From positions 1-64,000 of IMG/VR virus record IMGVR_UViG_3300025668_000798: a stretch of DNA of 64,000 nt. One strand, 5' to 3'. The first letter of the stretch is position 1. The number at the start of each line of letters is the position of its first letter. A program made the position numbers and the translations under genes. Positions 1 through 32,869 of the stretch are shown here, piece by piece. A model generated the notes under the pieces. That model worked only from the letters and a program-made list of their open reading frames with translations. It was not told where the DNA came from and did not search any database. This stretch comes from a virus.

Positions 1-598
1 GTGCGTTGTTCCAGTCTTTTTCAAACCATTCCGGAACCATGACCATATTGATTGTAACTTGTACATCGTGTTCTTGACACAGGATTAGTTTATCTGCAAA
101 GTCCTGCATCTTCTCCGTTGTATTTAAGTGTTCTGTATGTAAACTAGCAGTTATACTAGCTCGATGGAATGGCTTAACTGCTTCTACATACTTTTCAAAC
201 CACGCCATATTGCGACTACAGTTTGATGTCATGTGTACACTGGTGTAGTTGGTGTTGTCTACGTCATCAGCCAGATGTTGTAGAATGTCCAAGTAGCCAG
301 GATGGAAAGTAGGCTCACCACCACTAAGACTAAAATGATAACTATTAAATCCGTTTTCACGTGCTTGCCTCTTTATCTCATCTATGGTCCGTAAGCATAG
401 TTCTGTAGGACGGTGGTCTTTACGGTCACTGCGGGCATAAGGCCAACAGTAGGAGCATTTGTAATTACAGAATCTTCCAAGTAGCCAACTAACAGTAAAT
501 ATGTCACGATACAGCAGGGTACGCTGACCAACACTAATAATGTCGTCAAAGGGTATTTGTGTAAAGTCATAATTTGACCATTTTAAATCATCTTTCAT
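1..598 (-). CDS. Radical SAM protein, 3' end truncated by window edge (absent from ORF track)
   Basis: Manual translation from ATG at 598: MKDDLKWSNYDF...SWLLGRFCNYKCSYCW...SLSGGEPTF...HMTSN...ASLH. Open to the window edge. Contains CxxxCxxC and GGEP. Confidence 0.9.
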   Translation of the reverse strand, partial: MKDDLKWSNYDFTQIPFDDIISVGQRTLLYRDIFTVSWLLGRFCNYKCSYCWPYARSDRKDHRPTELCLRTIDEIKRQARENGFNSYHFSLSGGEPTFHPGYLDILQHLADDVDNTNYTSVHMTSNCSRNMAWFEKYVEAVKPFHRASITASLHTEHLNTTEKMQDFADKLILCQEHDVQVTINMVMVPEWFEKDWNNA

Positions 599-604
599 AT
601 TTTA

Positions 605-633
605 ATTATACAACCTTTTATGTGTCTTGTCAA
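605..633 (-). promoter_or_regulatory. Consensus sigma70-type promoter, probably leaderless
   Basis: TTGACA (633-628), 17 nt, TATAAT (610-605), then 6 nt to ATG at 598; no SD. Confidence 0.8.
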
Positions 634-643
634 TACTTATTTG

Positions 644-1909
644 TTATCTATTATGTCCAACAGTTGTTAACCACGGAAATGTTACTTTCCAATCAGTACC
701 TCTGCGTTTATCTAATTCAGTCAGTCTCCATTTTAGCATCTTAATTGCTTCATAATCTGCAGGCGTTTCGTTTATTTCTTTAAAAATAGTATTCACATAA
801 TCCATATAAGAACTATTGTTACCCTGATACATTATTTGATTCAATTCTTGTAACTCTTGTATTGTATCGTCGTAGAATCCTTCTGGCATAATTTTAGGAT
901 CAAAAAACTTTGGATCATGACATCTGTTATAGTTAACACTTACATATCGATGCTTATTCCATTCAATTACTTTACGTACAAGTGCTGGTGTAGTTTTTAA
1001 ACTTAAATTAGTTACAGTCCAATTCATAGTAGGAATAATTTCTGGACATTCATAAATTAAATAATTTATGTTTTCCTCCATTACTTCCCAATTATGAGGA
1101 AATCTAATATATTCACTTTCTGGTCCAAATGTGTCTACACTAATTACAAATACAACTTCTTTAACTGTTTTACTAAGTTCTTTTAATTTCTCGCAACCTC
1201 TTTTAAATAGTTTGGGTTTTACTTCCATGTTACTGTATATTTCAATATCGCATTCAGGATTTGGATGTTCAATCATCCAATCTACACAATCCCAAGTTTC
1301 TTTTTGAATAAACGGTTCACCACCTAGTAAGTCAAATGCTTTTAAACTACTGTAATTTTTCTCCATCCATTTGTAAAACTTTTCAAGACGCTCGTTGTAT
1401 GATTTTTCTTTTTCACTTACATCTCTAATAAACTCGTGCTTTGGCTCATACTCTTTCATTTCATTGACCCATGCACTACTATATTGCGGGCCACAATAAA
1501 CGCATTTTAAATTGCACTTATTATTAAAATGCATACTAACTTGTGTAGGCTTGATACGTGTAGCAGTAGGGTTATCATATAACTCTTTGGGTACATAACG
1601 TTTGTTATTATCATTACTTAACCATTGCATACGATCACTAGTACCGCCAATCTCTTCTTGATCTTTACAATGTTCACAGCCCCATCCATCAGCAGGCCAA
1701 TCGCCTTTGAGCATTTTTTCTCTATGCTCTAACCATTTTGGTTCATTATGAAAATCAAAATCTTTACCGATCTGTGCCATACCATTCCTGTGGCAACTAC
1801 TACTCGTATTATCCCACAAACTTAAAGTTACTTGGCTCCATTTTAATAAACAAGCCCTATCTCCTTTTGCAGGGAACCAATCTGGATTTTTCCATTCTTT
1901 TTTGCTCAT
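644..1909 (-). CDS. N-terminal twitch-domain radical SAM protein
   Basis: N-terminal C..W...SSCH...CEHC, then CNLKCVYC, GGEPF, and C-terminal LDKRRG..W...FP. Confidence 0.88.
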   Translation of the reverse strand: MSKKEWKNPDWFPAKGDRACLLKWSQVTLSLWDNTSSSCHRNGMAQIGKDFDFHNEPKWLEHREKMLKGDWPADGWGCEHCKDQEEIGGTSDRMQWLSNDNNKRYVPKELYDNPTATRIKPTQVSMHFNNKCNLKCVYCGPQYSSAWVNEMKEYEPKHEFIRDVSEKEKSYNERLEKFYKWMEKNYSSLKAFDLLGGEPFIQKETWDCVDWMIEHPNPECDIEIYSNMEVKPKLFKRGCEKLKELSKTVKEVVFVISVDTFGPESEYIRFPHNWEVMEENINYLIYECPEIIPTMNWTVTNLSLKTTPALVRKVIEWNKHRYVSVNYNRCHDPKFFDPKIMPEGFYDDTIQELQELNQIMYQGNNSSYMDYVNTIFKEINETPADYEAIKMLKWRLTELDKRRGTDWKVTFPWLTTVGHNR

Positions 1910-3072
1910 ATATATTCTCTTAATTTTAATAAATTACTGTCTTTCTTTTGTGCAGCAATATTAGATATCCAATTATCTAAATGTATATCATTTTGTTCTT
2001 GTGTACCAATTCTATTATGTAATTGTTCCAACCATTTATATGTATGACTATATTGTCCATCGTCTAAAAATAAATCTTTATTATCTTTTATAATTTTTAA
2101 TGTTTCTTTTACATGTGCTTTATATGAAGAATCTAATCTAGCTGGATCTAACTCATTAGGCCAGTTGACCCAATTACCAAATATAGCTAATTTAGTATCT
2201 GTTTTACGCAGTTGTTCTATAACCCATAAAAAATATGTATTCATATGTTTAAGAGTAAAAATATTTGGCGTAGGTGCTAATGTAACATTTACAATTCGAG
2301 GATGATTTATATAATCTTTAAAATTACTTTGAAAACGATTCCAGTCTAGTCCGTATCTTACTGCTTCAGCAACTTCTCCTGTTGCTTCGTTGCTTATTCC
2401 TAAACTTATTCCCCATTTAGAAGGTAATCTATCAAACAAGTCTAACAACTTTTTTTGATTTTTAGCAGTTGCATTACCGTTTGTTAACACACTAAAATTA
2501 ATATTCTTGTTGTAAATAGAAGTCTTTTCTAAAATTAGTTCCATAAACTTATAGAAATTTTTACTATAACTTATTTCGCCTCCTAAAAAACTAAGAGGTA
2601 TAAATGGTTGCTTGATTGCAACTTTTTCAAACCAATCTATAAAAGTTTCCATATGCTCAGGATCAGGTACATTCATAACTTTTTTATGTCCTAATTCTTG
2701 TGCAATACGACTACTACTAGTAGCATCACAATACACACATGCCATATCACATATGTTATCTAAGGTGATTTCGATATTATCAATATTGCGATTTACCTGC
2801 GTTGCGTCTGTCCACTTATTTTTAAAATCTCTATATGCGGTATTTGTTTCTTTGTAGCTATTCCAACAAAAATTACATGCAGAATTTTCAACACCACTTA
2901 CTAAATCTTTTCTTAAATTTTGTATATGCGTACTATTGTTAAAAAAGTCTTCTGTGACTATCTCAGGAAAAGGTTCACGTTTGCTTTTGCAACAATGACT
3001 AAGTGTTTTAGCACCAAAGTCAATATTTAAATCATACCATGCTGCACTACATAATGTTTTATTTAATGCCAA
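1906..3072 (-). CDS. N-terminal twitch-domain radical SAM protein
   Basis: LCSAAW...HCCK...CNFC, then CDMACVYC and GGEI. Confidence 0.85.
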   Translation of the reverse strand: MALNKTLCSAAWYDLNIDFGAKTLSHCCKSKREPFPEIVTEDFFNNSTHIQNLRKDLVSGVENSACNFCWNSYKETNTAYRDFKNKWTDATQVNRNIDNIEITLDNICDMACVYCDATSSSRIAQELGHKKVMNVPDPEHMETFIDWFEKVAIKQPFIPLSFLGGEISYSKNFYKFMELILEKTSIYNKNINFSVLTNGNATAKNQKKLLDLFDRLPSKWGISLGISNEATGEVAEAVRYGLDWNRFQSNFKDYINHPRIVNVTLAPTPNIFTLKHMNTYFLWVIEQLRKTDTKLAIFGNWVNWPNELDPARLDSSYKAHVKETLKIIKDNKDLFLDDGQYSHTYKWLEQLHNRIGTQEQNDIHLDNWISNIAAQKKDSNLLKLREYI

Positions 3073-4031
3073 TGTATATATGTACCTATGTTTTGCTGAT
3101 TGCTTTTATGATAACTATTGTCTTTTGGAAAATCTTGCGGTTTATTTGTACGTGGATCAATAAAACTTGTAGCTTTATTATCTTTGTATCCTAATCCTAA
3201 TAACACTGTAACTTTCTTACCCGGTCTTCCTAATGCATCAGAGACCGCACTAGGATCTTGTATACACGCACAATAACCAGTACTTAATCCTCTACTTTGT
3301 GCATTCCAAATAATAAAACTACTTGCTATTCCTATTTCAAGAAAAGATTCGTAATCAACATCGCCCCTTGGAGTAAATGCAAAAAGATACGGTGCAAGCA
3401 CTTGTGGGTTTCCCCAGTCTTCTTCTGCACTATGATCAGGGTCTCTCCAACACCACTCAAATATATTATGTCTAAGTTTTTCATTTCCCCAATCCATAAC
3501 ATCTAAATAATACGGTGTTCTAGATTGTTTGCTAGGAGCATATACATGCAAATCTAATAATATATCTTCAACTGTACTTGCTGGTACTAGCTCGTTTTTC
3601 CATCCAAAAGTAGTTTTTCGTTCTTTGATTAAATCACTAAAATTTCTAGTATAATTTGCTTCTTCTAATTTTGTAAAATTTTCTTTTAAGAGTGCCATTG
3701 CTTCTATTGCAATATACAAATCATTATCTAAATCTTTGAAAAGTTGATGTAATCTGCTTTCTATATATGCGTAAGTAGCCAACTCTATTCTTATATCTTT
3801 TAATACCAACTTACCATTTTGTACAAACTTATGAGATATTTCAGTAATTCTATTTGCATCTTGATGTAATAAGCAGCGTGATATACCCCACAAAATATAT
3901 TTTATATCTCGTTTACATCTGTAATGATCGTTAGTACGTTGTCTAAAAAAATTATGTCTTACAAAGTTCATACTATCCTCACTGAGAGAATCAATTTCTT
4001 TGTGTAAAAAATGATATCCTATTAAGCTCAT
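3063..4031 (-). CDS. Nitroreductase-family flavoprotein with extra N-terminal helical domain
   Basis: C-terminal half has ERKTTFGW...APSKQSRTPY...EIGIA...AQSRGLSTGYC...LGLGY, typical of the nitroreductase fold. Confidence 0.75.
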   Translation of the reverse strand: MSLIGYHFLHKEIDSLSEDSMNFVRHNFFRQRTNDHYRCKRDIKYILWGISRCLLHQDANRITEISHKFVQNGKLVLKDIRIELATYAYIESRLHQLFKDLDNDLYIAIEAMALLKENFTKLEEANYTRNFSDLIKERKTTFGWKNELVPASTVEDILLDLHVYAPSKQSRTPYYLDVMDWGNEKLRHNIFEWCWRDPDHSAEEDWGNPQVLAPYLFAFTPRGDVDYESFLEIGIASSFIIWNAQSRGLSTGYCACIQDPSAVSDALGRPGKKVTVLLGLGYKDNKATSFIDPRTNKPQDFPKDNSYHKSNQQNIGTYIHWH

Positions 4032-4094: not shown

Positions 4095-4829
4095 ATGTAC
4101 ACAGTAACAGAATGGGGAGTAAGCAACGAGCCTCCTGAAATTTTTGCAGACAGAAATAAGTATCCAGCAAAACCGTCTTATCCACAAGACTTAACAAACT
4201 CACGTGATATACACATGAGCAATAAATTAGATTATTTGCCAATTGTAGGCTTTGAAGATGCAGATTGGGAGAAGATGCTATCTGAGGCAAAAAACTTAGA
4301 AAAGCATTATGTACCGCATAGACACCACGAAAGTCATAGTGGATGGAGTAGTTTATGTATACACGGACTTAGCAGCGTACATACCGAATCGCATCATACA
4401 TATGGATTCGAAGATAGAAAAGATGCGCCTTATAGATGGACCGACGTTGCTGATTGGTGTCCTACAATTAGAGATTTTTTTGAAAATAGATTTGATTATA
4501 AGCAGTATGACAGAATAAGAATTATGAAACTATCCCCTGGTGGTTGGATCATTCCACACAGAGATAGTATTACATTAGACGAAAATCATATTGGTCCGAC
4601 TAACATAGCATTAAATAATCCAGAAGACTGCCATTTTTATATGGACAACATTGGTTACTTGCCTTGGGAACAAGGACGAATTATAAAACTAAATTTATAC
4701 AACTTGCATTGTGTATATAATTGGAGCAACGAAGATAGATATCATATTATTGCACACGGCCGACTAGGCGATGGATGGAACAATCGTATAGAAGAAAGTT
4801 ATCATCATTGGAGAAAAATTTATGTATAA
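4095..4829 (+). CDS. Aspartyl/asparaginyl beta-hydroxylase-like Fe(II)/2OG dioxygenase
   Basis: GWSSLCIHG, RIRIMKLSPGGWIIPHRD (HxD), distal HCVYN..EDRYH. Confidence 0.8.
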   Translation: MYTVTEWGVSNEPPEIFADRNKYPAKPSYPQDLTNSRDIHMSNKLDYLPIVGFEDADWEKMLSEAKNLEKHYVPHRHHESHSGWSSLCIHGLSSVHTESHHTYGFEDRKDAPYRWTDVADWCPTIRDFFENRFDYKQYDRIRIMKLSPGGWIIPHRDSITLDENHIGPTNIALNNPEDCHFYMDNIGYLPWEQGRIIKLNLYNLHCVYNWSNEDRYHIIAHGRLGDGWNNRIEESYHHWRKIYV

Positions 4830-6120
4830 TATACAACATGCCGTTGTTGTACCTAAACATATAAAAGAAACACTAGACCGTGATTTATATCAAAGTTGGA
4901 TGCTATACTATCAACGTGGACATTATGTAAAGCAAAGCACTAGCGAACATCCATTTGTTTTTGCTGAAACGGTTGACGAAATACTTGCTATTATAAAAGA
5001 TAAAGATACCGAATATTTAATATTAACATGGTTTGGTATGTATAGTTCAGACTTTTGGCATGTGCATGATCTTTGTATAGACAATATTGAAAGTCACAGA
5101 ACATTTGCACAAGACGAGTGGTCTGTTCTAAGTGACAATAATAAAAACACAATACAAATGGTAAATTTAAAAGAGTGGAAAAAGCAAGGATGTCCTGCGT
5201 ATGCCGACTTTAGTAAAAAATCTAAAACAATTAATAAGCGTATAGTAGAAAAATTACTAGATAGCAAGGCAATAGAAAATCCTAGAGCATGGAACGAAGA
5301 ACTTTTACATTTCACCCAGCTACCTATTATACAAACCAATATTACTGATTTGCTTACAAAGCTAATAACTACACGAAATCCAAGACATGCTAACACGCAC
5401 GATAAGGGCGTATTCTTCTTGTATAACACTGAAGCTATATGTACAGACAAAGAACGTCTAGGCACCGTACAGGGCGCTATAAACACTGTTATAGGCCCTT
5501 GTAGCATGTTTAAAGCATTCATACTAGGAAGTAAGTATTTAAATGCTGTTGACAATTATTTACACTTTGACATATTTGATCGAAACTTACAATGGAAAAA
5601 ACTTATTACCGAAAACTGGAATGGTACAAAAAAAGGACTTATAAAAACATTAGAATTATGTCACGACGATGGCGACGGAGATTTTAGTTTTTGGAGTAAC
5701 GGTAGTCAAAACATAATTGATAAACAATGGAATGTTTTAATTGAAGAGCTAGGTAGTGCAGAAAAGATTGAAGCAGCATGGAAAATATATCAAACAAAAC
5801 ATCATGCATATGCATTAAGTAACATGTTGTTTGACGACACTGAAATTATTAATTGTTTAGAAAATTTTAATATTACTGGTATATATCATGCTATAGGCGA
5901 CATACCTGGATTTAGAAGTAATGCTTTACAGTTTGGATTGCAACAAATTAATAGTCTAACAAGAACACACCTTAAACGTGTTGCCAAAGTAAATCAAAAT
6001 GTTTATGTAGATATAAAAGTTCCAGCGTCTGATTTACAGAAGTTTAAAAAGTATGATGAAATTATCGAAGATTTAGACAACGACTACGAAAAATTTTCTT
6101 TCGAACGATACTCAGAATAA
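4822..6120 (+). CDS. Hypothetical protein, paralog of 13816..15177 (possible GT-like plus Rossmann-like domains)
   Basis: 432-aa ORF overlapping the upstream gene; motifs VNLKEWK, FLYNTE, LHFD resemble LNIKK, YVYNTD, MFAD in the paralog. Confidence 0.55.
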   Translation: MYNIQHAVVVPKHIKETLDRDLYQSWMLYYQRGHYVKQSTSEHPFVFAETVDEILAIIKDKDTEYLILTWFGMYSSDFWHVHDLCIDNIESHRTFAQDEWSVLSDNNKNTIQMVNLKEWKKQGCPAYADFSKKSKTINKRIVEKLLDSKAIENPRAWNEELLHFTQLPIIQTNITDLLTKLITTRNPRHANTHDKGVFFLYNTEAICTDKERLGTVQGAINTVIGPCSMFKAFILGSKYLNAVDNYLHFDIFDRNLQWKKLITENWNGTKKGLIKTLELCHDDGDGDFSFWSNGSQNIIDKQWNVLIEELGSAEKIEAAWKIYQTKHHAYALSNMLFDDTEIINCLENFNITGIYHAIGDIPGFRSNALQFGLQQINSLTRTHLKRVAKVNQNVYVDIKVPASDLQKFKKYDEIIEDLDNDYEKFSFERYSE

Positions 6121-7325
6121 TTATCAAACAAGTTAGTGCCGTGATAGTTATCTAATGCGGCACTATAATCTAAAAACTGCTGCCATTTATCATTTCTATC
6201 TTCACTATTCATATAATTTAATGTATTAGTTGCAAACTTTTTGATTCTGTCAAGTTGTTTTTGTACATCAACCTTAACACTAACGTCTTGTATATATTCT
6301 TTTGCTTCATTATTGTACCATGCCCAAAATTCTTCCGTAATTTGGTGTTTTAATTCAGCAGGTAATAATTTTATGTTTAAAGCTTCTGGATATTGTACTA
6401 GACTTGAATGAAAATATACATCTAAACTACAGAAATACTTAACAATATTAGTAAATCTTGTTATGTTGTATAAATTTACTGTACACGTAGCACTGATATC
6501 AGTATTTGTCAGTGTATTATTTAATAATTTAATATTTTCTTCAACTTTATCTAAATTTCCTGCTGCTCTTACGTATTCGTAACAACTAGGATCGCCGTCT
6601 ATACTTACTCGTAGCCATATTTTTTTAAAATTCTTCCATAAATCTAACACACTCTTGCCTTTGTATTCTAATATGTTGAGATTTGTGTTGTAGCTTAGTC
6701 TAATATTTTTTGCATAAGGTTGCATGTCTTCTAAGAATTTGTAATGCTTACTATGATACAAAGGTTCACCGCCTGCAATCATTATTTCTTCTAGATTTGG
6801 TGCAAGCTCGTTTGCTATTTCGTCAACCATTTCCTGTGTTAGACTAACGTGTTTTACATCTTTTCTATATGTACCGTACTCTACCATTTTATCTAGTAGA
6901 GCAGAATCACGTTTTACTGCCTGTTCCCATACGCTACTAAAATCTGGACTACAATGCCTACACATAAGATTACAAATATTATCAAATCTTATTTCTACAC
7001 TTCGTATATACTTCTCAGGAAAACTATAATCTTCGCTAATATTTTCTTTTACAAACTTTTCATCAACATAAGGAAAGGTTTGTGTGCATTGTTGACGAGT
7101 GCTTATACTACCGCTTTTTTCCATATCCCAACAACTACGACATCCAGTATTTTGAACACCATTAAGTAAATCTTTACGAACCTGCTTTATAGCATCATCA
7201 TTCCATACTTCTTGTAATTTTTGTGTTCTGTAGTCACCAAGTTTATCTGGAAATCTCCAACAGGCACTTACTTTGCCTTCTTGTTTTATATTGAGATGTG
7301 TAAAAGGCATAGGACAGAAAGTCAT
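6084..7325 (-). CDS. N-terminal twitch-domain radical SAM protein
   Basis: FCPMPF...SACW...CRSCW..E..G..STR, then CNLMCRHC and GGEPL. Confidence 0.9.
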   Translation of the reverse strand: MTFCPMPFTHLNIKQEGKVSACWRFPDKLGDYRTQKLQEVWNDDAIKQVRKDLLNGVQNTGCRSCWDMEKSGSISTRQQCTQTFPYVDEKFVKENISEDYSFPEKYIRSVEIRFDNICNLMCRHCSPDFSSVWEQAVKRDSALLDKMVEYGTYRKDVKHVSLTQEMVDEIANELAPNLEEIMIAGGEPLYHSKHYKFLEDMQPYAKNIRLSYNTNLNILEYKGKSVLDLWKNFKKIWLRVSIDGDPSCYEYVRAAGNLDKVEENIKLLNNTLTNTDISATCTVNLYNITRFTNIVKYFCSLDVYFHSSLVQYPEALNIKLLPAELKHQITEEFWAWYNNEAKEYIQDVSVKVDVQKQLDRIKKFATNTLNYMNSEDRNDKWQQFLDYSAALDNYHGTNLFDNYSEYRSKENFS

Positions 7326-19800: not shown

Positions 19801-19826
19801 TTTTTTACATAAGGATATATGAATCA

Positions 19827-25199: not shown

Positions 25200-25880
25200 C
25201 ATTTCATCTGCTTGCTTCTTGCGTTTTTCATACTGGTTTTCTTCAAACAAGTCTTCCCAATTATCGGGTAGTTCAAAATCAACACCAAGATAATAGTCTT
25301 CAAATTTTTGATAACTTTGATTTAATACATTTACATACTCTTGATCGGTATAACTACCGTCCCAAGGTGCGCCTAATGCTAGAGTAAATTTTGTATCTCC
25401 TGATGTGTTGTGCATCTCGTGAGGCCATTTACCGCTCATTACAAATGGCTTATCTATTGCAGTTGGCGTTACACTGGTATCTTTTCCTATAAAGTCCAAG
25501 TCATCTACATTACCTTGCATAACATATCTAAACTTGTGCTGCGATGTGTTAAACATTTCAGGACTACAATCAATATGTAATGGATTCTTATAATCATTAG
25601 GTGTAGTAATAATCATTATTCTACTACGTTGTTTTGTAATTTTGAATAGTACGTCTTCGCACCATTGTTTTAGTTTAGGCATTTCAAATGCCCAAGGCAT
25701 CCATTGAAATTTATCTTTATCCGTTGGATTATACATAACTGGCACATGCCAACAATTTCTATATTCGTCTTGATATATTTTGCTAAAATCTAAACTGTTT
25801 AAATAATCCATATGATCTAATGGAGGATTTTCAATATCTAGAGGCAAGTATAGTAAGTCGTCAAATAATTGTTTATCCAT
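25182..25880 (-). CDS. Putative Fe(II)/2OG dioxygenase (AspH-like)
   Basis: RIMIITTP...PLHIDC (HxD)...WPHEMHN..K; start at ATG 25880. Confidence 0.65.
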   Translation of the reverse strand: MDKQLFDDLLYLPLDIENPPLDHMDYLNSLDFSKIYQDEYRNCWHVPVMYNPTDKDKFQWMPWAFEMPKLKQWCEDVLFKITKQRSRIMIITTPNDYKNPLHIDCSPEMFNTSQHKFRYVMQGNVDDLDFIGKDTSVTPTAIDKPFVMSGKWPHEMHNTSGDTKFTLALGAPWDGSYTDQEYVNVLNQSYQKFEDYYLGVDFELPDNWEDLFEENQYEKRKKQADEMLSKNR

Positions 25881-27246
25881 TTGTATCTTTACACAAATCA
25901 AAAAAGTCACTCATTTCAGGAAATGCTTCTTTGAAGTTTGTATTCCTTCTTTTATCATGTTCGTTAAAGAAACGCCAGAAGTCAATTCGTCCTTGCATAA
26001 CCTTGGCTGGATCATAGTTAGTACTATCCATATAATCTACTACCCGTCTAAAGCGTTCATATTCCATTGTAGTAAATGCATCTTTACGTTCGTCATCTAA
26101 GTTGTCTTTAATAAACTGTAAATGACTGTGCATATACTCCATGTATTCTTGTGGTAAAATATTTATATCGTACTGCAACGGCTCTTTCAAATAAGGTGTA
26201 TCAAAACTCAGTCTATTCCATCTGTATGTTTCAACATCGTTGTATTTACGGCGCCATTCGAGTATTTTTTCAAGTAGTGTTTGAAATGTTGTTACACTGA
26301 AAATATTAAACGTAATCATAATAGTCACAGGAGCATCAGTATTACGCATAAAATAATCTAGATTACGCTCAAATACATTAATGTCTAATCCATTACGTAT
26401 ATACTCAGCACGTTCTCCCCAAGTGTCAATACTTGTAAACAATTTAAATCTGCGTATCTTATTTTGACTAAGCAAACTATTTACTGCATCAGTAAACTTT
26501 TCCAGCTGCTTCGGCTTGCCTCCTAAGTTACTATTTACATTGAGCTCAAGGTTTGGCTTAGGATCGTTTTCTAATAAATCAAATAGTTTGTATGTGCTTT
26601 TTTGTATTGTTGGTTCGCCGCCTGTTATCCTTAAAATAGTTAATTCATTACTTAAATCTGGCCACCATTTCCAAAATGCATCTAAATAAGGATTGTTATC
26701 TTCTTCATATATTTTAAACCAATCAATATCACAACGATGATTTTTAACCATATTGTATGGACCATGTTGTTTAATTTCGTTGTAGTATCTACTGCTGGCT
26801 TTTGGATGGCAATAACCGCACTTGAAGTTACATTCGTTACCAAAGGATACTTCTAAATATTCTGGGTTAACATTAAACTCTGCGCCGCCTTGTTTAACAG
26901 CATTTAATCTTTTTTCGTTATAGATACTACTGCTACGAGTTTTACGATCACTAATATAATCTTCGCCCATATTTTCAATATTCCAGCAATATTGACACCC
27001 GCTTGGTTTTTCTCCACGCAGCATAGAATTACGTTCTTCAATTTTTTGTGCTGTATTATGAATTGCACTAGGATTTGTTAAAATAGCTTGTGTATCTATT
27101 TTATGAGGAGCAGGATGATAACAACTATGTGTCTCACCTGTTTGGAAATATATGTTTGCATGATACCATTTAGCAAAACAAAATGTAGGAGATATTTGTT
27201 CGTCTGTATATTTTGTTATACGGACTGCTTCATCTCTTTCGCTCAT
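25873..27246 (-). CDS. N-terminal twitch-domain radical SAM protein
   Basis: FCFAKW...HSCYH...CQYCW..E...SDR, then CNFKCGYC, GGEPT, and HDKRR.TNF..AFP. Confidence 0.9.
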   Translation of the reverse strand: MSERDEAVRITKYTDEQISPTFCFAKWYHANIYFQTGETHSCYHPAPHKIDTQAILTNPSAIHNTAQKIEERNSMLRGEKPSGCQYCWNIENMGEDYISDRKTRSSSIYNEKRLNAVKQGGAEFNVNPEYLEVSFGNECNFKCGYCHPKASSRYYNEIKQHGPYNMVKNHRCDIDWFKIYEEDNNPYLDAFWKWWPDLSNELTILRITGGEPTIQKSTYKLFDLLENDPKPNLELNVNSNLGGKPKQLEKFTDAVNSLLSQNKIRRFKLFTSIDTWGERAEYIRNGLDINVFERNLDYFMRNTDAPVTIMITFNIFSVTTFQTLLEKILEWRRKYNDVETYRWNRLSFDTPYLKEPLQYDINILPQEYMEYMHSHLQFIKDNLDDERKDAFTTMEYERFRRVVDYMDSTNYDPAKVMQGRIDFWRFFNEHDKRRNTNFKEAFPEMSDFFDLCKDTNG

Positions 27247-28163
27247 TTTAGTTCCTTGTCAATAAACTTAGGATTTCTTACTGGATTTTGATAAACTGTT
27301 TTAAAAAATGTGCTTTGCCCTGCTCTAAGAGGTTCTTGGTCTATTGGTGCTTGTAGCTCGCTTATTAATTCGTCGCCCAAACGTTCAGTTTCTTGTTCAA
27401 GTGTTTCTTCGGTTACTTCTAACGATTCCCAATACTGGTTGAGCCATTCAAAGTCACGTACATTAACAAAGTCCCAATCTGTACACATTGTTTTGTATAA
27501 GCCTTCTCTAGCACCATATACTGCCCAACGTCCGTTTTCGGCATCAGCACCTACCATTAACCAAATCCATAGTCTATGTAAATTTTTCCAATGGTTACGC
27601 TTGAAATCTTCTATATCGGGTCTAATGCCTTGATCGAGTGCCATTTTAACACCTTCACGAAAACCAGCACGCCACGCTTGATGAGGTGTAGCATTGTTGT
27701 AAATATCGCTAAATGTTCCGTTCATTTGTATGTATTGTAAGTCCCAACAAAAGTCTACTTGTGCATGTGGATTGTCAGGATCAGCATTTTCATGTGTACG
27801 CATACTAAGTACTTTTTCTTTAGGCCAACATTTGATACCGCCATTGCCGTACGTCAAACCATTTATTTGATTTAACGCTGTCCAACTAATAACTTTGTCG
27901 GTTAAGTCGTAGTCACTCAAATCTGCTTCTTGACTTAAAAAAGTTTCACGTATTCTGTTATCACCGTCAATAGTAATAAATCGATCTGTGTCACTCATAT
28001 TAGCAGCAGCTTTGTGTGCTGCATCACTTCCTTCAACTCCATGCACCCGTTTAGCCCATGGAACTTTTGTTAGCAAATCAGCATAATTCTGTTCTGCATT
28101 AGGTTCATCATATGACAAGTAAATTATGTCATGGTCTACTACTCTAAAAATATTATCAGTCAT
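27243..28163 (-). CDS. Glycosyltransferase-like (GT-A fold) protein
   Basis: DIIYLSYDEP...AHKAA...ITIDGDN (DxD)...YGNGGIKCW; paralog of 18717..19748. Confidence 0.65.
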   Translation of the reverse strand: MTDNIFRVVDHDIIYLSYDEPNAEQNYADLLTKVPWAKRVHGVEGSDAAHKAAANMSDTDRFITIDGDNRIRETFLSQEADLSDYDLTDKVISWTALNQINGLTYGNGGIKCWPKEKVLSMRTHENADPDNPHAQVDFCWDLQYIQMNGTFSDIYNNATPHQAWRAGFREGVKMALDQGIRPDIEDFKRNHWKNLHRLWIWLMVGADAENGRWAVYGAREGLYKTMCTDWDFVNVRDFEWLNQYWESLEVTEETLEQETERLGDELISELQAPIDQEPLRAGQSTFFKTVYQNPVRNPKFIDKELK

Positions 28164-28716
28164 TTATTACCTCGTGTGCGTAAGATCCAAACTTTTTTAC
28201 AGTATAAACGCTAATTGGCTCTTTGTCAAACTCAAAGTTGTCTTGGAAATCAATAGTGAAAGTATCTTCTTTAAAATTTAGCATACAATACAAATAATAA
28301 GGATTATTTTTCTTTGTGACACTAAAATTAGATATCATGTGATCCAAACTAACATTTTTTTCTTCAATTGTTTTAATTAGCTGTTCACTAAGTTTAATTT
28401 GCCATTTTTTCTGTACGTTATCTTGAACAATTGTTAGATCAGGTTCGTTGTCATTTTCAATTTTGTATAAAAAACTATCACTCGACCGTGCTTCAGTCCA
28501 GTAAGTACTATGTTTTAATACATAGTCTTTTGCAACTAAATCATATTCTACAGTATATTCATTTGAAGGAATTATTCCTTTTAATAAGTCTTGTACTTCA
28601 AATGAATCTACAGTAATGTATTGATCACTACTAGGTGTATTTTTAATTGATAATATACGCCCATTATCGGCAAACTCAATATATTTTTTCGTATTGCTTC
28701 TAACTACTATTGGCAT
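28156..28716 (-). CDS. Hypothetical protein
   Basis: 186-aa ORF within the operon. Confidence 0.65.
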   Translation of the reverse strand: MPIVVRSNTKKYIEFADNGRILSIKNTPSSDQYITVDSFEVQDLLKGIIPSNEYTVEYDLVAKDYVLKHSTYWTEARSSDSFLYKIENDNEPDLTIVQDNVQKKWQIKLSEQLIKTIEEKNVSLDHMISNFSVTKKNNPYYLYCMLNFKEDTFTIDFQDNFEFDKEPISVYTVKKFGSYAHEVIND

Positions 28717-28717: not shown

Positions 28718-29557
28718 TTATATTCCTAAATATTTTTCATATGTGCTAATTATATTATTGTTAGCAAAATCTTTTTCTGTATAATGAAACACGCCGCTTT
28801 GTTTGTAATTTCCTACATATAGATCTAAATTATCATCAAGATAACTACTTACTCTAGTTTGCCATTTTTGTTCATCATATTTTTCCCAATGTTGTAATTT
28901 TGATTTCATGTGTACAAATGTAGGAAATTCTGTCTTACTTGTAATACTATGCTCGCAATTTAATATTTTTGCTGCTATTGCTGCACTTAGATCCATGCTA
29001 CATGTTTTCTGATATGTTTTGCCACCAGCATGATTTTTATAAAACAATTGCCAGTTATTTGTAATCATCTCTAGCCAAGTATAAAATTCTTTTGCTAATG
29101 GACGTTCCTTAAAATAATGTATACCACTATATAAATTTGGTAAATTAAATTGTGTAAATGCTTTCCTATAATAATCACTAGTTACAGTTTCTCCTCTATA
29201 CGTTAACACGTTGCTGGTATAATATAAATCATAATTGTTTAAAAAGGCAAACCATTTACTTAAATCTTGCAATACCAACATATCTGTATCCATTACTAAT
29301 GTGTCAGCATAAGGAGTAGCATGATAAATTTTCCAACGATTACTAATTTTCCAGTCTTCGTCCTTGGCATGATCTTTCCAAGGTATTTCTACAATATGAT
29401 CAAATAACTGTTTATATTTTTCTGGTACAGCATCATTGGTAATTAAAGAAACATTACTGTCTGGATTTGTAGCATGTATACTCATTGCACACAAACATGC
29501 TTGTTTTACATAGTCATCGTTGCTGTTTTGAGCAAGCAAAGTAAAATTTTTATCCAT
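28718..29557 (-). CDS. Glycosyltransferase (GT8-like)
   Basis: Y...A...A.SI, VSLIT, TPY..TLVMDTDMLV (DxD), FVHMK. Confidence 0.72.
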   Translation of the reverse strand: MDKNFTLLAQNSNDDYVKQACLCAMSIHATNPDSNVSLITNDAVPEKYKQLFDHIVEIPWKDHAKDEDWKISNRWKIYHATPYADTLVMDTDMLVLQDLSKWFAFLNNYDLYYTSNVLTYRGETVTSDYYRKAFTQFNLPNLYSGIHYFKERPLAKEFYTWLEMITNNWQLFYKNHAGGKTYQKTCSMDLSAAIAAKILNCEHSITSKTEFPTFVHMKSKLQHWEKYDEQKWQTRVSSYLDDNLDLYVGNYKQSGVFHYTEKDFANNNIISTYEKYLGI

Positions 29558-30374
29558 TAATAATTCTCTCTAAACTTATTTTATTCATAATATGAACATT
29601 TTGCTTGTTTGTTTTTAACCCCGTATACTGTCCTATATGTGATTGTTTTTCTATAAGAAATAACATTGTATCATTGTCTATATTATCAACAATGTCTCTA
29701 TCTGTAATAAAGTATTTCTTACCTGGAAGCGAAGCTATTTTTAGTTCATCTGTAAAACCATTCAATGTGTGAGCAGCAATACTAAAAGCAAAATCGTTTC
29801 TATACAAAGGAGATATTATTTGATATAGACTTTTATAGTGTGTATAATTTTCTCTAACATGTTTTACTAAGTCAAAGAAACATTGTGCTTGCTTGCACTT
29901 TTTAAAGTAAACAACTGTGGCCCAATAAAATTTTATACTTGTATCAGTTACCCTATCAAATTCTGTTAACTTTCTCCAATGACACAAATCTACAGCATTG
30001 CTATACATCATTAGATTTTGATTAGATCCAAAGCAGTTGTTTAAACTATCGTTGGCAAGTATAAAATCAGTGTCCATTACAATAGTTTCGTCAAACGGTG
30101 ATAAATCATATGCATTATATCTATCAGCATTATTAAAATTTGACATCGAAGAAGCCATATTACCATCGCGAAACTTTCGACTATTTTCAGATACACTTGG
30201 TTCTAATTTAATAACATGCTCAAAAAAATCAATACGTGAATCATCTGTCATATCAGTAGCAATTGCAACCGGAACATCTAAATACTTTTTAATACGTTCT
30301 GCACAATATATAGCTTGTTTAATATAATCTAATGCTTTGTTTTTTTTGGCAAAAAGTAAAACGCCTTTGCTCAT
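29550..30374 (-). CDS. Glycosyltransferase (GT8-like)
   Basis: GVLLFA, SPFDETIVMDTDFI (DxD), RNDFAFSIA, VHIMNK; tandem paralog of 28718..29557. Confidence 0.72.
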   Translation of the reverse strand: MSKGVLLFAKKNKALDYIKQAIYCAERIKKYLDVPVAIATDMTDDSRIDFFEHVIKLEPSVSENSRKFRDGNMASSMSNFNNADRYNAYDLSPFDETIVMDTDFILANDSLNNCFGSNQNLMMYSNAVDLCHWRKLTEFDRVTDTSIKFYWATVVYFKKCKQAQCFFDLVKHVRENYTHYKSLYQIISPLYRNDFAFSIAAHTLNGFTDELKIASLPGKKYFITDRDIVDNIDNDTMLFLIEKQSHIGQYTGLKTNKQNVHIMNKISLERIING

Positions 30375-30718
30375 AAATCTAGTATACCTTCAACACTTCT
30401 TTTGCTTTTTATTTTGTTGTATTCAACAAAGTATTCATTAGATGCTGTAAAATATGTATTTAAAATATTTTGATAGAAATCTTCTAAATTTGCAATCTCA
30501 ACAGGAATATCATTATCGTCGCTGATAATCACAGACTGCTGATCACTATCAATTAAACTTTTGATAAAATTAATCAACTCTCGCGATACTGTAAAGGTTG
30601 CGCCGTTAAAATAGTACACAAGATTTTCGTAATACTTTTCTTTTAAAATGCGTGTTTGATTGTTTAATGTAACCATATAGTTACTAATATCTAATGCTTT
30701 TTCAAGCCGCTCGTCCAT
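30371..30718 (-). CDS. Hypothetical protein (possible tail-fibre assembly factor)
   Basis: 115-aa ORF with GGAGG SD; first gene of the GT operon, adjacent to structural genes. Confidence 0.6.
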   Translation of the reverse strand: MDERLEKALDISNYMVTLNNQTRILKEKYYENLVYYFNGATFTVSRELINFIKSLIDSDQQSVIISDDNDIPVEIANLEDFYQNILNTYFTASNEYFVEYNKIKSKRSVEGILDL

Positions 30719-30741
30719 AAAAAACCTCCATATATACTGCT

Positions 30742-30770: not shown

Positions 30771-30781
30771 CCGATATATGA

Positions 30782-31840
30782 TTAAGTTACACTAGGACCG
30801 TTTGACGAAAAGCCAGGTCTGATTGCGTTACCGCCTAATGTAAAATCAGTGTCCGTAGTACCGTCATTTAATGTAATAGTACTATCAGGATAATATTGAG
30901 TCCATGTAATTTGTACGTTAGCAGTAACAGGTTCATCTACTGGAGTACTTTCAGGACCATCGGCAGGATCACCTGTGCCTGCATCGTTATCGTTTAATCT
31001 TACTTGTAAAGTTACACGATTAAAACTATCAATAACTGCTAATCTTATTTCAATTTGGTTATCATTGTAAATGCTTCCTGCACCAATTTTTGTGTACTTG
31101 GTAGTTAGAGCTATATCGTCAGTAATATTAGGAGTGGCTGTAATCGAGCCTGTTCCACTGTTACTTAAACTCTCTACTACCCATTCCCATCCGGTGCCTG
31201 CAGAATCAGGACGAACATATAATCTTACTGTACCCATATTTGATGCCATTGTTTGCCAGTTTAAGTTTTTTTCATAACTAGCTTGTCCTACACTACCAAT
31301 AGCATCAATATCAATATTTACACGTAGTTCGCCGCCGAGGGTGAAATATTCCTCCATATCCGATTGAGTAGACCATGTGAAAACGTTACTACCTGTTATA
31401 AAGTTCCACTGTGCAGTTACCTCGTCTATGTCTGTTACAACTGTGCCAAAGTCTCCACCAAACTCCGTTGTACGTCTATCAAACGATGCACATGCATTTG
31501 CAAGATCATATAATCCTTTAACATCCCCAGCATCACCCCAATCTGCCCATTCAATTACTTGACCAGTTTGTAAACCAGGATATGTAGTTCCGCTTGATAT
31601 TGTTTTTATAGCTCCGGTTTGATGATAGTGTATAAGCTGACCTACACTGAATAATCTTTCGACATCTGCTGACAATACACTATCGCTAGTAGCAATATTA
31701 TTGCCTCCTGTTACACTATTAGGAATGTCATTAGCACCAGTTCCGGATGCAAACCCATATTGACCTGGTCCAAAATTGTTCAATAATATTGATCTAATGT
31801 TATTAAAATCTGCTGCACTAATCGAACTGCCTACGGCCAT
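30782..31840 (-). CDS. Virion structural protein (tail/fibre associated), paralog of 32840..33736
   Basis: G/S/T/D-rich; shares F..GG.., W..M.SN.G.V, IY.[DN]N..EI and P.DE.V..N. with paralog; ATG 31840 after GGAG. Confidence 0.6.
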   Translation of the reverse strand: MAVGSSISAADFNNIRSILLNNFGPGQYGFASGTGANDIPNSVTGGNNIATSDSVLSADVERLFSVGQLIHYHQTGAIKTISSGTTYPGLQTGQVIEWADWGDAGDVKGLYDLANACASFDRRTTEFGGDFGTVVTDIDEVTAQWNFITGSNVFTWSTQSDMEEYFTLGGELRVNIDIDAIGSVGQASYEKNLNWQTMASNMGTVRLYVRPDSAGTGWEWVVESLSNSGTGSITATPNITDDIALTTKYTKIGAGSIYNDNQIEIRLAVIDSFNRVTLQVRLNDNDAGTGDPADGPESTPVDEPVTANVQITWTQYYPDSTITLNDGTTDTDFTLGGNAIRPGFSSNGPSVT

Positions 31841-31864
31841 AATTGTCTCCACCTACTTTTTTAT

Positions 31865-31905
31865 AGTATAACTTATTTATCTGTGTTTTGTCAAGTGGTT
31901 AAATA
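31865..31905. promoter_or_regulatory. Divergent promoter region
   Basis: Minus strand: TTGACA, 18 nt, TATACT (31894-31865) with TAAATA nested at 31879-31874. Plus strand: TAAATA at 31900-31905. Confidence 0.55.
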
Positions 31906-31906
31906 C

Positions 31907-32869
31907 ATGATGCAACGCTTTGAATATCAAAAGTCACGTGATTTTGTTTACATAGATTGGGATATGAGTAGTAGATGCAACTATGCTTGTGCATACTGTG
32001 AACCTGCTGCACATGATGGTAAATTTGACTTTCCTACCATAGATAACGCAAAACTACTAGTAGATAAAATTACTAAAACATATACAGATAAGTTTGCTGT
32101 ATATAATTTATTTGGTGGCGAGCCAACTATATGGAGACAAATACCAAACTTTTTTGAATATGTAAAAAAAGCAAATATAAAAAATAAAGTACAATTGCTT
32201 ACAAACGGCAACAAAACAAAAAAATGGTGGCTACGTAATAAAAATAATATTGATAGTGTAGTTGTTAGTGTTCATGTAGCACAAGTAGATATAGTTGAAT
32301 TAGTAGAAAAATTTAATGCGTGTGCAGGTTACTTTGATATACATTTTCAAATATGCATGGACATAGAAAATTTTGATTTAGCAGTTGAACAATACGATTA
32401 TTGTTTTGCAAATTTACACAAATACATTAGATTAGATTATAAACCTCTACGTATTAGTTTGGACCAAGCTGAATCTATGCCTTACACTAAAACACAAATA
32501 GAAACTATGAAATCCTTTGTAAAATTAGATGGAGTAAAAAAAGATAATTACGGCGTAACAATGGTTGACGAAAATAAAAATCCTGTTAACTTACAAAAAT
32601 TATTATTAGAAAAAAAGAATAAATTTAAAAACTGGGCGTGTTGGATTGGCATAGACACACTTAATATCACTAGAGAAGGCAATGTTACAATCGGTAGCCA
32701 GTGCTTTCCTAATTTTGTATTAGGTAGTATACACAATTTAGATTTTGATATTCCGTATCTACCTATAAAATGTCAATATGAATATTGTAGTTGTTTAACA
32801 GACTTAACAACTAAAAAAATAAAAAATTATAATGGTAAATTATTCGAAGACAGTAATATTGTTGTATGA
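31907..32869 (+). CDS. Radical SAM protein with C-terminal Cys-rich (twitch/SPASM-like) domain
   Basis: DWDMSSRCNYACAYC, GGEPT, LTNG, VSVH, C-terminal CWIG...C...C..YCSC; ATG start at 31907. Confidence 0.87.
   Translation: MMQRFEYQKSRDFVYIDWDMSSRCNYACAYCEPAAHDGKFDFPTIDNAKLLVDKITKTYTDKFAVYNLFGGEPTIWRQIPNFFEYVKKANIKNKVQLLTNGNKTKKWWLRNKNNIDSVVVSVHVAQVDIVELVEKFNACAGYFDIHFQICMDIENFDLAVEQYDYCFANLHKYIRLDYKPLRISLDQAESMPYTKTQIETMKSFVKLDGVKKDNYGVTMVDENKNPVNLQKLLLEKKNKFKNWACWIGIDTLNITREGNVTIGSQCFPNFVLGSIHNLDFDIPYLPIKCQYEYCSCLTDLTTKKIKNYNGKLFEDSNIVV

Follow-up and report, generated by a model that had tools for sequence, protein, structure and literature searches.

Radical SAM genes beside the fibre genes

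What would a phage make with a dense run of radical SAM (rSAM) genes placed next to its tail fibres? The question is raised by the left half of the 64,000-nt stretch of DNA analysed here (the window), whose source is a jumbo myophage of about 350 kb, marine and uncultured. Base 1 of the window is also base 1 of an 80,363-bp contig, so the rSAM cluster runs off the left edge, as an earlier note on this DNA had claimed, and g01 is truncated there at 199 aa (orthologs, 373-393 aa). The same note had considered that the contig might be a host/phage chimera. It is not, since the same 10 kb recurs in 18 metagenome runs on seawater, which come from at least 8 studies (2016-2025; a run was counted when it held at least 90% of the sampled words), independent DNA contigs cross the region and differ little from it, and the orthologs are viral. 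The island is real and stable; metagenome depth at g13 is about 4x that of the flanks.

The gene map bears out the description of mostly overlapping operons right after the tail-fibre genes. The island genes are tightly packed or overlapping and directly follow three fibre paralogs, g35, g36 and g37 (33761-39138, minus strand), which have a common N-terminal stretch of about 190 aa, g37 carrying a Tail Collar domain. Next to these, g38 and g39 (39138-53355, minus strand) form a conserved island boundary on the virion-gene side, g39 being a giant protein of 4,528 aa (CBM5/12, FG-GAP). Another fibre-like gene, g21 (21574-22851, plus strand), with period-4 Gly repeats of the Gly-x-Val-x type and conserved N- and C-termini, lies inside the island; it has 21 orthologs, and 31 of 80 loci carry a member of its family within the island.

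A motif scan of positions 1-32,869 returned 13 ORFs with CX3CX2C, the number first reported, and 12 of the 13 reach the Pfam PF04055 cut-off, g26 falling below it. The rSAM genes take up 47% of that stretch (15,486 of 32,869 nt) and comprise seven N-terminal-twitch proteins, three of a C-terminal-twitch family (family B), two of a third family (family C) and one B12-rSAM-like protein. All seven N-twitch proteins pass the curated cut-off (170 bits) of NF033640 (N_Twi_rSAM): g02 and g03 (644-3072; 248 and 175 bits), g07 and g08 (6084-8686; 313 and 298 bits), g12 and g13 (11082-13788; 376 and 422 bits) and g26 (25873-27246; 316 bits), the last gene of a conserved fibre-proximal operon, all on the minus strand. 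Pfam SPASM matches lie N-terminally in g07 (residues 4-66) and g08 (residues 9-85), and the structure model of g07 has a pLDDT of 93. Because the SAM-cluster Cys and four twitch Cys are invariant, g02 and g03 included, despite pairwise identities of just 18-33%, all seven paralogs look functional. The most conserved gene of the island is g13, with orthologs of 80-92% identity on more than 140 viral contigs. The nearest solved structures to the N-twitch proteins are generic, comprising peptide-modifying enzymes (CteB, SkfB, anSME) and sugar- or nucleotide-modifying ones (BlsE, viperin, BtrN), and we know of no N-twitch rSAM enzyme with an assigned substrate.

Family B consists of g09 (8667-9707, minus strand), with a C-terminal C..PCC..CxxxC auxiliary-cluster motif, and of g15 and g16 (15174-17284, minus strand). 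To family C belong g01 (2-598, minus strand; PF04055 58.4 bits), whose orthologs are 76-92% identical and in relatives sit at the far end of the island or close to it, and g33 (plus strand, within 30782-33736), on either side of which lie g32 and g34 (30782-33736, minus strand), paralogs of unassigned function. The B12-binding-type rSAM gene g20 (19955-21577, plus strand; PF04055 58.4 bits) overlaps the start of g21 with its stop. Its B12-binding domain match scores 18.2 bits, under the 32.1 cut-off, its best NCBIfam matches are PhpK-type and RiPP C-methyltransferases, far under their cut-offs, and only 2 orthologs were found in relatives.

Glycosyltransferase-like genes and candidate tailoring enzymes

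Four DxD glycosyltransferase-like genes had been proposed, and two of them gain support as GT-A-type proteins. The predicted GT-A fold of g27 (27243-28163, minus strand), with an invariant D66-x-D68 and a model pLDDT of 89.3, matches B4GALNT1 (Z 10.6, rmsd 3.1 over 140 residues), STIV A197 (Z 10.1) and ThuS (Z 9.7), and Foldseek matches (ThuS/SunS, PBCV-1 A64R) likewise include peptide/protein glycosyltransferases and a chlorovirus capsid glycosyltransferase. Its paralog g19 (18717-19748, minus strand), the first gene of its operon, is GT-A-like, its relatives being fused forms of 546-938 aa. The other two, the tandem paralogs g29 and g30 (28718-30374, minus strand), have an invariant DxD and are weakly GT8-like, their sole family support being a weak profile match to glycogenin (E 7e-4); as Pfam GT8 matched neither them nor their 120 best homologs, GT8 membership is weak.

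Two of four claimed Fe/2OG dioxygenases likewise stand: g05 (4095-4829, plus strand), of the Asp/Asn beta-hydroxylase family (PF05118, Asp_Arg_Hydrox, 37.8 bits, cut-off 22.6), a family found 4 times in the islands of relatives, and g23 (23519-24607, plus strand), of the TauD family (PF02668, 56.3 bits, cut-off 27). Profile-profile tests linked no further window family to either, and the other two are dropped. A nitroreductase, an SDR and a methyltransferase are retained in weaker form. Against PF00881, g04 (3063-4031, minus strand) scores 20.0 bits where the cut-off is 23.5; the islands of relatives contain two proteins that match this family (best E 1.8e-10). The ortholog profile of the short SDR-like g11 (10528-11085, minus strand) matches SDR structures at E 2e-3, and a Gly-rich N-terminus and S...YxxxK are conserved. 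As for g18 (17843-18736, minus strand; 64 orthologs), a class-I methyltransferase-like assignment is a lead from its motifs and from a language-model neighbour cluster of the atlas, 21% of whose proteins have Methyltransf_31 (score 0.95); no PDB match was found by sequence. The GNAT-like protein of the earlier note found no support in profile searches of the window proteins, nor did family searches support such a reading of g24 (plus strand) and g25 (minus strand; together 24543-25910), whose family is not assigned.

No family can be assigned to about one third of the island genes. On the plus strand these include g06 (4822-6120; 432 aa; no Pfam, PHROG or NCBIfam match), which is rare, with two orthologs among the loci searched, and g22 (22873-23532; 219 aa). 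On the minus strand they include g10 (9707-10531; 274 aa), g14 (13816-15216; 466 aa; seven orthologs), g28 (28156-28716; conserved within its operon), g31 (30371-30718; 115 aa), the first gene of a conserved operon, and g17 (116 aa) with a 74-aa ORF (17275-17846), neither of which resembles a RiPP precursor.

Synteny and gene turnover in relatives

In all three long relatives examined (G001, G002 and G005; 137-257 kb) the island follows the giant protein and the fibres, as it does in the window, and the order giant protein, fibres, g34, g31-g26, then rSAM cassettes is kept even though the fibres are only 38-54% identical. The linkage to the fibre module thus holds. Of 12 close loci inspected, a single one is colinear with the window. 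A conserved scaffold recurs, made of the glycosyltransferase-like g30, g29, g27 and g19, the methyltransferase-like g18 and five or six rSAM genes (g26, g16, g13, g12, g01). Between the scaffold genes cassettes are gained and lost, consisting of extra rSAM paralogs and, in relatives, also of NDP-sugar enzymes. Across 80 loci the three rSAM families account for 615 of 1,349 ORFs.

A Pfam search of 90 non-rSAM island proteins from the three relatives detected UDP-Glc/GDP-Man dehydrogenases (4), NAD epimerase/dehydratases (2), DegT aminotransferase, carbamoyltransferase, TylF-type O-methyltransferase, a sugar C-methyltransferase domain, Man-6-P isomerase, cytidylyltransferase, RmlD and Polysacc_synt_2. 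An AMP-binding enzyme is also present, the carbamoyltransferase is TobZ-like, and a PP-loop ATPase family with a Cys cluster and weak TtuA/NcsA-like matches is common. The NDP-sugar enzymes lie within the same overlapping gene strings as the N-twitch rSAM genes (for example dehydrogenase, epimerase, rSAM at 166,956-169,773 of G002), an interleaving that supports glycan tailoring over RiPP or DNA modification. Since no Epimerase, UDPG dehydrogenase or DegT was found in the window's own record, the sugar reading for this phage rests on its relatives and on the glycosyltransferase-like folds. The earlier proposal, a viral pathway for building and tailoring a glycan, is therefore upheld in general, mainly through the NDP-sugar enzymes of relatives rather than through the window itself.

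The author of the earlier note also knew of no characterised phage pathway with this enzyme set. This holds for characterised pathways, but pelagimyophages have been described as carrying islands of fibres, GT8 and radical-SAM cassettes (PMC7029224), and 12 rSAM genes have been noted in a marine T4-like genome (PMC5332604). Similar islands and rSAM-rich marine myophages were mentioned in passing in 2017 and 2020.

Expression signals and solubility

Near-perfect sigma70-like promoters head the enzyme operons at g01 (633-605), g19 (19783-19755), g22, g27, g31 (30770-30742) and g32, a hint of early expression that would suit host remodelling or nucleotide chemistry no less than decoration of the virion. 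The heptamer ATAAATA occurs 11 times against about 51 expected, and six copies stand 5-25 nt upstream of start codons, at g13 (5 nt), g21 (17 nt), g32 and the virion genes g35, g38 and g40. These point to a late-type expression signal common to island and virion genes, which we count in favour of a role in the virion. No membrane segment is predicted in any of the 34 island proteins; the pathway is soluble and membrane export proteins are absent.

What the island may build

The most likely product of the island is a sugar coat with unusually heavy tailoring. Our preferred explanation, held tentatively, is a hypervariable sugar/glycan tailoring island fixed beside the host-recognition (fibre) genes, with the fibres as likeliest acceptor. 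A 5'-deoxyadenosyl radical, together with a Cys4-bound auxiliary Fe-S cluster, would abstract H from unactivated sugar carbons, resulting in oxidation, epimerisation, deoxygenation or C-methylation, in the manner of BtrN, SpeY, NeoN, BlsE and GenK-type enzymes. Substrates could be NDP-sugars, host-derived or phage-made, or sugars within a growing glycan. In the cytoplasm, the soluble GT-A and GT8-like transferases would next join the product to an acceptor, most likely a virion surface protein, namely the fibres g35-g37 and g39 beside the island and g21 inside it.

The same enzymes could instead act on LPS, capsule or another surface glycan at the inner membrane face, with host flippases and ligases exporting the product, receptors masked and superinfection blocked; we regard this as unlikely. 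GT8 and Asp/Asn-hydroxylase families include LPS-modifying members (LPS core glycosyltransferases, LpxO), and this speaks for it, as do the O-antigen-type NDP-sugar enzymes of relatives and the early-type promoters ahead of six enzyme operons. Zaragoza-Solas et al. proposed such a role for GT8 genes in pelagimyophage host-recognition clusters (PMC7029224). Yet the island holds no membrane protein, flippase, polymerase, ligase or priming transferase, seroconversion would presumably benefit a strictly lytic jumbo phage less than a temperate one, and a link to the virion is indicated both by the late-type ATAAATA of the g13 operon and by the fibre-like gene within the island.

Somewhat less probable still is direct protein modification, where most rSAM enzymes and dioxygenases would act on fibre side chains or backbones, such as the Gly-x-Val-x repeats of g21, by epimerisation, C-methylation, cross-linking or hydroxylation, with the glycosyltransferases adding sugars on top. 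This would resemble proteusin or sactipeptide maturation, but with a structural protein as target. The best N-twitch matches in sequence and fold do include SkfB, CteB, anSME and the YydG/EpeE epimerase, but all similarity scores against peptide maturases are far under the family cut-offs; g20 is similar to RiPP C-methyltransferases and its end overlaps the g21 start, a coupling that is not conserved (2 against 21 orthologs). Asp/Asn beta-hydroxylases are protein hydroxylases, and ThuS and SunS, two of the GT-A matches, are peptide S-glycosyltransferases. Against this, the searches turned up no PqqD/RRE domain, no protease, no exporter and no small ORF of leader type, and in relatives the rSAM genes share operons with NDP-sugar enzymes.

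We give little credence to a diffusible glycosylated small molecule resembling aminoglycoside or nucleoside antibiotics, made in the course of infection by BtrN/BlsE-type rSAM enzymes, aminotransferases, a carbamoyltransferase and glycosyltransferases. No enzyme that would form a scaffold (cyclitol synthase, PKS or NRPS), no exporter and no resistance gene was seen, and the fixed place in the virion module and strain-level cassette turnover better fit a recognition surface, even if there are weak profile matches to BtrN and BlsE and the DegT, TobZ-like, TylF, C-methyltransferase and AMP-binding enzymes of relatives are also typical of antibiotic sugar pathways. Least probable of all is hypermodification of DNA or nucleotides to evade host restriction or defence, for although known phage thymidine hypermodification pathways employ rSAM enzymes, the early-type promoters are compatible, g01 and g33 are faintly viperin/QueE-like and relatives carry the PP-loop ATPase family, the matches to QueE, QueC and viperin score far under cut-offs, the window has no hydroxymethylase/thymidylate-synthase homolog, DpdA base-exchange enzyme, nucleotide kinase or GT-B DNA glucosyltransferase, and in every relative examined the island belongs to the structural module and not to that for replication.

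Returning to the sugar coat, if the fibres are indeed the acceptor, each phage strain would display its own glycan.

Radical SAM genes of the island

The island at 1–32,869 holds 34 tightly packed ORFs (genes are numbered g01, g02 and so on in window order), and radical SAM (rSAM) genes make up 47% of its DNA. The earlier note had counted 13 of them, and the count held: a CX3CX2C motif is present in 13 island ORFs, 12 of which reach the PF04055 cut-off, while g26 (25.8 bits, cut-off 29.5) falls short of it and passes that of NF033640, the N_Twi_rSAM family (hereafter N-twitch). Full-length membership of this family was found for g02, g03, g07, g08, g12, g13 and g26, with scores of 175–422 bits against a curated cut-off of 170 bits, which none of 14 control genomes reached. 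These seven paralogs are mutually 18–33% identical, and C9, C27, C90, C93 and C146/C150/C153 (g13 numbering) are invariant in all of them; in 45 diverse family members each of the same seven cysteines is either invariant or conserved to at least 90%. A Pfam SPASM match at residues 4–94 of the N-twitch proteins places the auxiliary-cluster cysteines N-terminal to CX3CX2C. To our knowledge this twitch-then-rSAM order is absent from solved structures, and we know of no characterised member or substrate of the family.

A profile search returned 2,249 N-twitch homologs at E ≤ 1e-10, the nearest clusters being 92–100% viral, and the paralog-profile search gave phage orthologs only, among the matches listed. 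When genome contigs were scanned for g13 orthologs (a single-protein search), one contig, L099, was found in a Candidatus Dojkabacteria MAG; it carries a lone g13 ortholog (58% identity) at 9959–11362. With its length of 38 kb, GC of 30%, small ORFs and one 1,508-aa ORF, it probably stems from a phage and was binned with a CPR genome. The plasmid search gave a single irrelevant Streptomyces match.

A second rSAM family (family B), composed of g09, g15 and g16 (8667–9707 and 15174–17284), has the core first, followed by a C-terminal C..PCC..CxxxC pattern. In the N-twitch proteins the corresponding C..CC..CxxC pattern is N-terminal, and because of this mirror arrangement of core and Cys motif the two families appear to be permuted versions of a single domain design. 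A third family comprises g01 and g33. As for g20, its rSAM domain scores 58.4 bits, its B12-binding domain 18.2 bits (cut-off 32.1), and its top NCBIfam match is the PhpK family (72 bits against a cut-off of 600); it looks like a B12-rSAM enzyme, with a sub-threshold cobalamin domain. The structural model of g07 (pLDDT 93) has CteB, SkfB, BlsE, anSME, NifB, viperin and MoaA as its PDB neighbours in Foldseek, at TM 0.3–0.4, and sequence profiles give the same generic picture.

Elsewhere in two related genomes, outside the main island, an N-twitch match of 215 bits (G001:C1:223219-224286 and G004:C1:31854-32921) contains a single in-frame TGA in each genome, for which a broken gene, a pair of ORFs and recoding are possible explanations.

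Glycosyltransferases and other enzymes

Four glycosyltransferase-like genes had been proposed, two of which found structural support. The model of g27 (pLDDT 89) matches many GT-A transferases at Z 9–10.6 over ~140 residues, and its DxD residues, D66 and D68, do not vary across 29 sequences; it also matches the same-fold nucleotidyltransferases IspD and MobA at Z ~9. On this model g27, and g19 by paralogy, are predicted to have a GT-A fold with a DxD metal site, and a sequence-profile search of the PDB with either found nothing. The other two, the tandem paralogs g29 and g30, have an invariant D90-x-D92 and H258. They gave no match to PF01501 (CAZy GT8) at a Pfam E ≤ 0.01, no precomputed Pfam domain is recorded for any of their 120 best homologs, and their profile of 8 sequences matches glycogenin-1 weakly (E 7e-4 over 107 residues).

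Likewise, two of four claimed Fe/2OG dioxygenases were recovered above the Pfam cut-off, namely g05 on PF05118 (Asp/Asn hydroxylase family, 37.8 bits) and g23 on PF02668 (TauD, 56.3 bits). No further window family was linked to them by hhalign; among the island families, the comparisons completed linked only TauD-like clusters and rSAM fragments. The accompanying SDR stands as a short, weakly supported SDR-like protein, g11; the methyltransferase survives as a lead, g18, and the nitroreductase match of g04 is below the Pfam threshold. PDB sequence-profile searches with g18 and g24 found nothing.

For about ten island genes, neither Pfam nor PHROGs nor NCBIfam gave a family. In PHROGs, 19 of 20 unknown proteins had no match and the single match, that of g38, was to an unannotated family; nine unknown window proteins had none in NCBIfam. 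g21 is fibre-like, with period-4 Gly repeats and with conservation at the N-terminus and in a C-terminal motif.

Contig integrity and phage lineage

The source is a linear IMG/VR contig of 80,363 bp (CheckV completeness 22%), the window being its first 64 kb, along which GC (30–38%) and strand skew are uniform. At 33.7–64 kb lies a contractile-tail baseplate and fibre module, including a gp25-like wedge protein, a DUF2345 spike, a gp53-like protein and a 1,141-aa protein. At 33761–39138 lie three consecutive fibre paralogs (g35–g37), one with a Tail Collar domain, which have their first ~190 residues in common (31–36% identity) and diverge beyond; from their sequences they look like alternative fibres for a single attachment site. 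The virion-side boundary is formed by g38 and a giant ORF of 4,528 aa (g39, 39769–53355) with CBM5/12 and FG-GAP motifs, which may be the counterpart of VrlC, a giant protein in marine myophages. In the related genome G005 a protein of 4,592 aa corresponds to it, with 44% identity.

Two objections that the earlier note had raised against itself and that can be checked in sequence, a host/phage chimera and loss of the linkage to tail genes in relatives, both fail, because the contig proved not to be chimeric and the cluster is tail-linked in relatives. At least 90% of the sampled words of one 10-kb stretch were present in 18 metagenome runs (marine or seawater; at least 8 studies, 2016–2025), independent DNA contigs span this stretch with few differences, and more than 140 g13 orthologs occur on IMG/VR contigs at 80–92% identity. 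The gene order is kept in G001, G002 and G005, the three long relatives.

Since the long relatives reach 137–257 kb at 38–72% estimated completeness, and one contig bearing a g13 ortholog measures 353,636 bp, we take this to be a jumbo phage with a genome of ~350 kb. Among the cultured phages searched, only three weak matches to g13 (RsoM2USA and Vibrio K566/K567) were obtained, none to window gene g42, and faint ones from the PA5oct group to g44. By such sequence comparison the system is absent from cultured phages.

Island architecture and variability across relatives

In all three long relatives the order runs from the giant protein through g38, the fibres, the g34 family and g31-g30-g29-g28-g27-g26 to the rSAM region, the fibres being only 38–54% identical to those of the window. 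The long relatives (137–257 kb) have 10–19 rSAM genes each, with up to 16 N-twitch genes above cut-off. The recurring scaffold consists of g31 to g26, the g21 family, g19-g18-g16, g13, g12/g11 and g01, and the genes between are swapped: only one of 12 loci inspected (L009) is colinear with the window, and most non-scaffold window genes have 2–13 orthologs. The three rSAM families account for 615 of 1,349 ORFs in 80 loci, a share somewhat inflated because the loci were centred on g13. In metagenome contigs from two runs, depth over g13 (12304–13631) is ~4x that of flanking island genes, which fits a conserved anchor common to many co-occurring island variants with differing neighbours.

A Pfam tally of 90 non-rSAM proteins from the relatives' islands gave four UDP-Glc/GDP-Man dehydrogenases, two NAD epimerase/dehydratases plus GDP-Man-dehydratase-type domains, a DegT aminotransferase, a carbamoyltransferase, a TylF O-methyltransferase, a sugar C-methyltransferase domain, Man-6-P isomerase, cytidylyltransferase, RmlD and Polysacc_synt_2, as well as further Asp/Asn hydroxylases, nitroreductases and cupins. 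The NDP-sugar genes share overlapping gene strings with the rSAM genes; in the window's own record such NDP-sugar enzymes were not found. An AMP-binding enzyme and a fatty-acid-desaturase-like protein also recur in the islands. A PP-loop ATPase with a Cys cluster, present in 47 of 80 loci and not in the window (e.g. L026:13557-14384 and L004:11109-11987), is ~280 aa long, has an SGGxDS motif and an invariant C..CxxCxxC, alternates with N-twitch genes and weakly matches the Fe-S-dependent tRNA thiolases TtuA and NcsA. The related genome G003 encodes an A-type Fe-S carrier.

Two further observations were made on these islands. At the far end of that of G001 (G001:C1:187613-188902) lies a TctA-family transporter-like protein, the sole multi-pass membrane protein among the three relatives' islands examined. 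In two independent 2024 seawater DNA runs, the intergenic (promoter) region between the divergent g19 and g20 (window 19817–19914) has 29 other letters, identical in the two runs, in place of 96 bp; the flanks are otherwise nearly identical.

Expression signals

The motif ATAAATA is five-fold depleted in the window (11 copies against 51 ± 8 expected), and six of the 11 copies lie on the coding strand 5–25 nt upstream of start codons (13793, 21551, 31874, 35297, 39766 and 56824). These precede island genes g13, g21 and g32 and virion-module genes g35, g38 and g40, and the motif looks like a candidate late promoter common to island and structural genes. Use of T4's TATAAATA was rejected, there being 2 copies where 16 would be expected. 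Near-perfect sigma70-like sites head g01, g19, g22, g27, g31 and g32; the total of such sites is not above chance, and it is the placement of the 11–12/12 matches alone that is suggestive. Judging from these motifs, the island may be expressed both early and late, and thus the signals do not settle the acceptor. Two metatranscriptome runs gave short, nearly identical contigs on g09, g16, g18, g19, g21, g22 and g23, which are no proof of transcription because DNA carry-over is possible.

Relation to known systems

In the PBCV-1 capsid (A64R), the Mimivirus fibril and mycobacteriophage virion O-glycosylation, virus-encoded soluble glycosyltransferases and sugar-nucleotide enzymes decorate virion proteins without host membrane machinery. 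Among GT-A folds, the predicted structure of g27 matches A64R and Mimivirus R699. We know of no rSAM enzymes and no cassette-like hypervariability in those three systems, nor of any characterised viral glycosylation system with such rSAM sugar tailoring. On the enzyme side, twitch-domain rSAM enzymes acting on sugars or cyclitols include the dehydrogenases BtrN and SpeY and the decarboxylase BlsE, and GenK-type B12-rSAM enzymes C-methylate sugars. The N-twitch proteins resemble BtrN, SpeY and BlsE in having an rSAM core plus one Cys-ligated auxiliary [4Fe-4S] domain, in weak profile and fold matches, and in the company of NDP-sugar enzymes; however, the twitch is N-terminal here and C-terminal there, and similarity to any characterised enzyme is at superfamily level only. 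In the literature searched we found no analysis of these rSAM families and no proposed chemistry.

The closest genomic counterpart is the hypervariable "host recognition cluster" (HRC) that follows the giant VrlC gene of pelagimyophages and contains fibres, GT8 genes and rSAM cassettes (Zaragoza-Solas et al. 2020, mSystems, PMC7029224). It occurs also in cyanomyophages, is bounded by VrlC and the neck protein gp14 in a T4-like (Tevenvirinae-type) genome, and close relatives differ by added rSAM cassettes (PMC7029224). Both are large non-syntenic islands inside the structural module, and the present one is hypervariable, carries fibres, glycosyltransferases and rSAM cassettes and adjoins a giant protein. 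Yet the lineage here is another and much larger one (up to 257 kb at 72% completeness, with one contig of 354 kb), its virion proteins match cultured phages, including T4-like ones, only faintly, and rSAM genes dominate, with 13–19 in each island and 47% of the DNA, mostly from the one family NF033640.

In the marine T4-like environmental viral genome TARA_ERS488813_N000010, genes for Fe-S assembly occur together with 12 for rSAM enzymes (Nishimura et al. 2017, mSphere, PMC5332604). It is likewise a marine myophage with a double-digit rSAM count and Fe-S carrier genes, as with the carrier of G003, but that paper gives the count only, in the context of Fe-S metabolism, with no island structure, family assignment or fibre/sugar link (PMC5332604). 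Islands of this type are thus known already, and what is new lies in the lineage, in the scale and in the predominance of a single uncharacterised rSAM family.

Functional interpretation

On its domain content, the relatives' enzyme set reads as the vocabulary of rare-sugar biosynthesis and not as that of RiPP or DNA modification. We consider sugar or glycan tailoring, taken alone, to be probable, and its combination with a virion fibre acceptor to have somewhat less than an even chance. As the window's record has no NDP-sugar enzymes, the phage would have to use host sugar nucleotides; and as no membrane segment is predicted in the window's island proteins, any glycan must be built on a cytoplasmic acceptor.

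Remodelling of the host envelope is the alternative closest to what was proposed for the HRC, whose authors suggested modification of the host O-chain (PMC7029224). We regard it as unlikely here. Direct protein modification, in which the enzymes would act on polypeptide itself, appears quite unlikely. An Asp/Asn hydroxylase-family protein is present (g05), and the neighbours of the g07 model, being generic rSAM proteins only, do not discriminate a sugar from a peptide substrate. The island as a RiPP biosynthetic cluster was rejected: no Pfam domain of a precursor, RRE/PqqD-like domain, leader protease or exporter was found in its proteins, the small ORFs at 17622–17846 and 19791–19967 showed no core-peptide features, and membrane proteins are lacking. 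A diffusible small molecule as the product of the island is in our opinion improbable. DNA or nucleotide modification seems similarly improbable, and Pfam finds no base hydroxymethylase, base-exchange enzyme, nucleotide kinase or DNA glycosyltransferase among the window's proteins.

Returning to glycan tailoring on fibres, a more speculative extension, which we hold as rather doubtful, is combinatorial diversification. N-twitch cassettes would each carry out a different C-H functionalisation on the sugars of a fibre-attached glycan, and cassette exchange would, beside fibre sequence, create surfaces for host recognition or anti-recognition that differ between strains of an abundant marine jumbo phage lineage. 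If this is true, the system would add a new level to the evolution of phage host range and offer a large, so far unexploited source of new radical carbohydrate chemistry.

Significance

The large N-twitch family has no known substrate, and the conserved anchors g13, g26 and g01 are thus concrete entry points for enzymology. The island also bears on the reason for Fe-S assembly genes in marine phages. Its fixed fibre-side position, together with the turnover of cassettes, makes it testable whether phages vary recognition, or the evasion of immunity or defence, via glycans besides fibre sequence. If the glycan reading is true, an abundant and globally recurring marine lineage would devote about half of a 30–60 kb island to oxygen-sensitive Fe-S radical enzymes for the tailoring of sugars.
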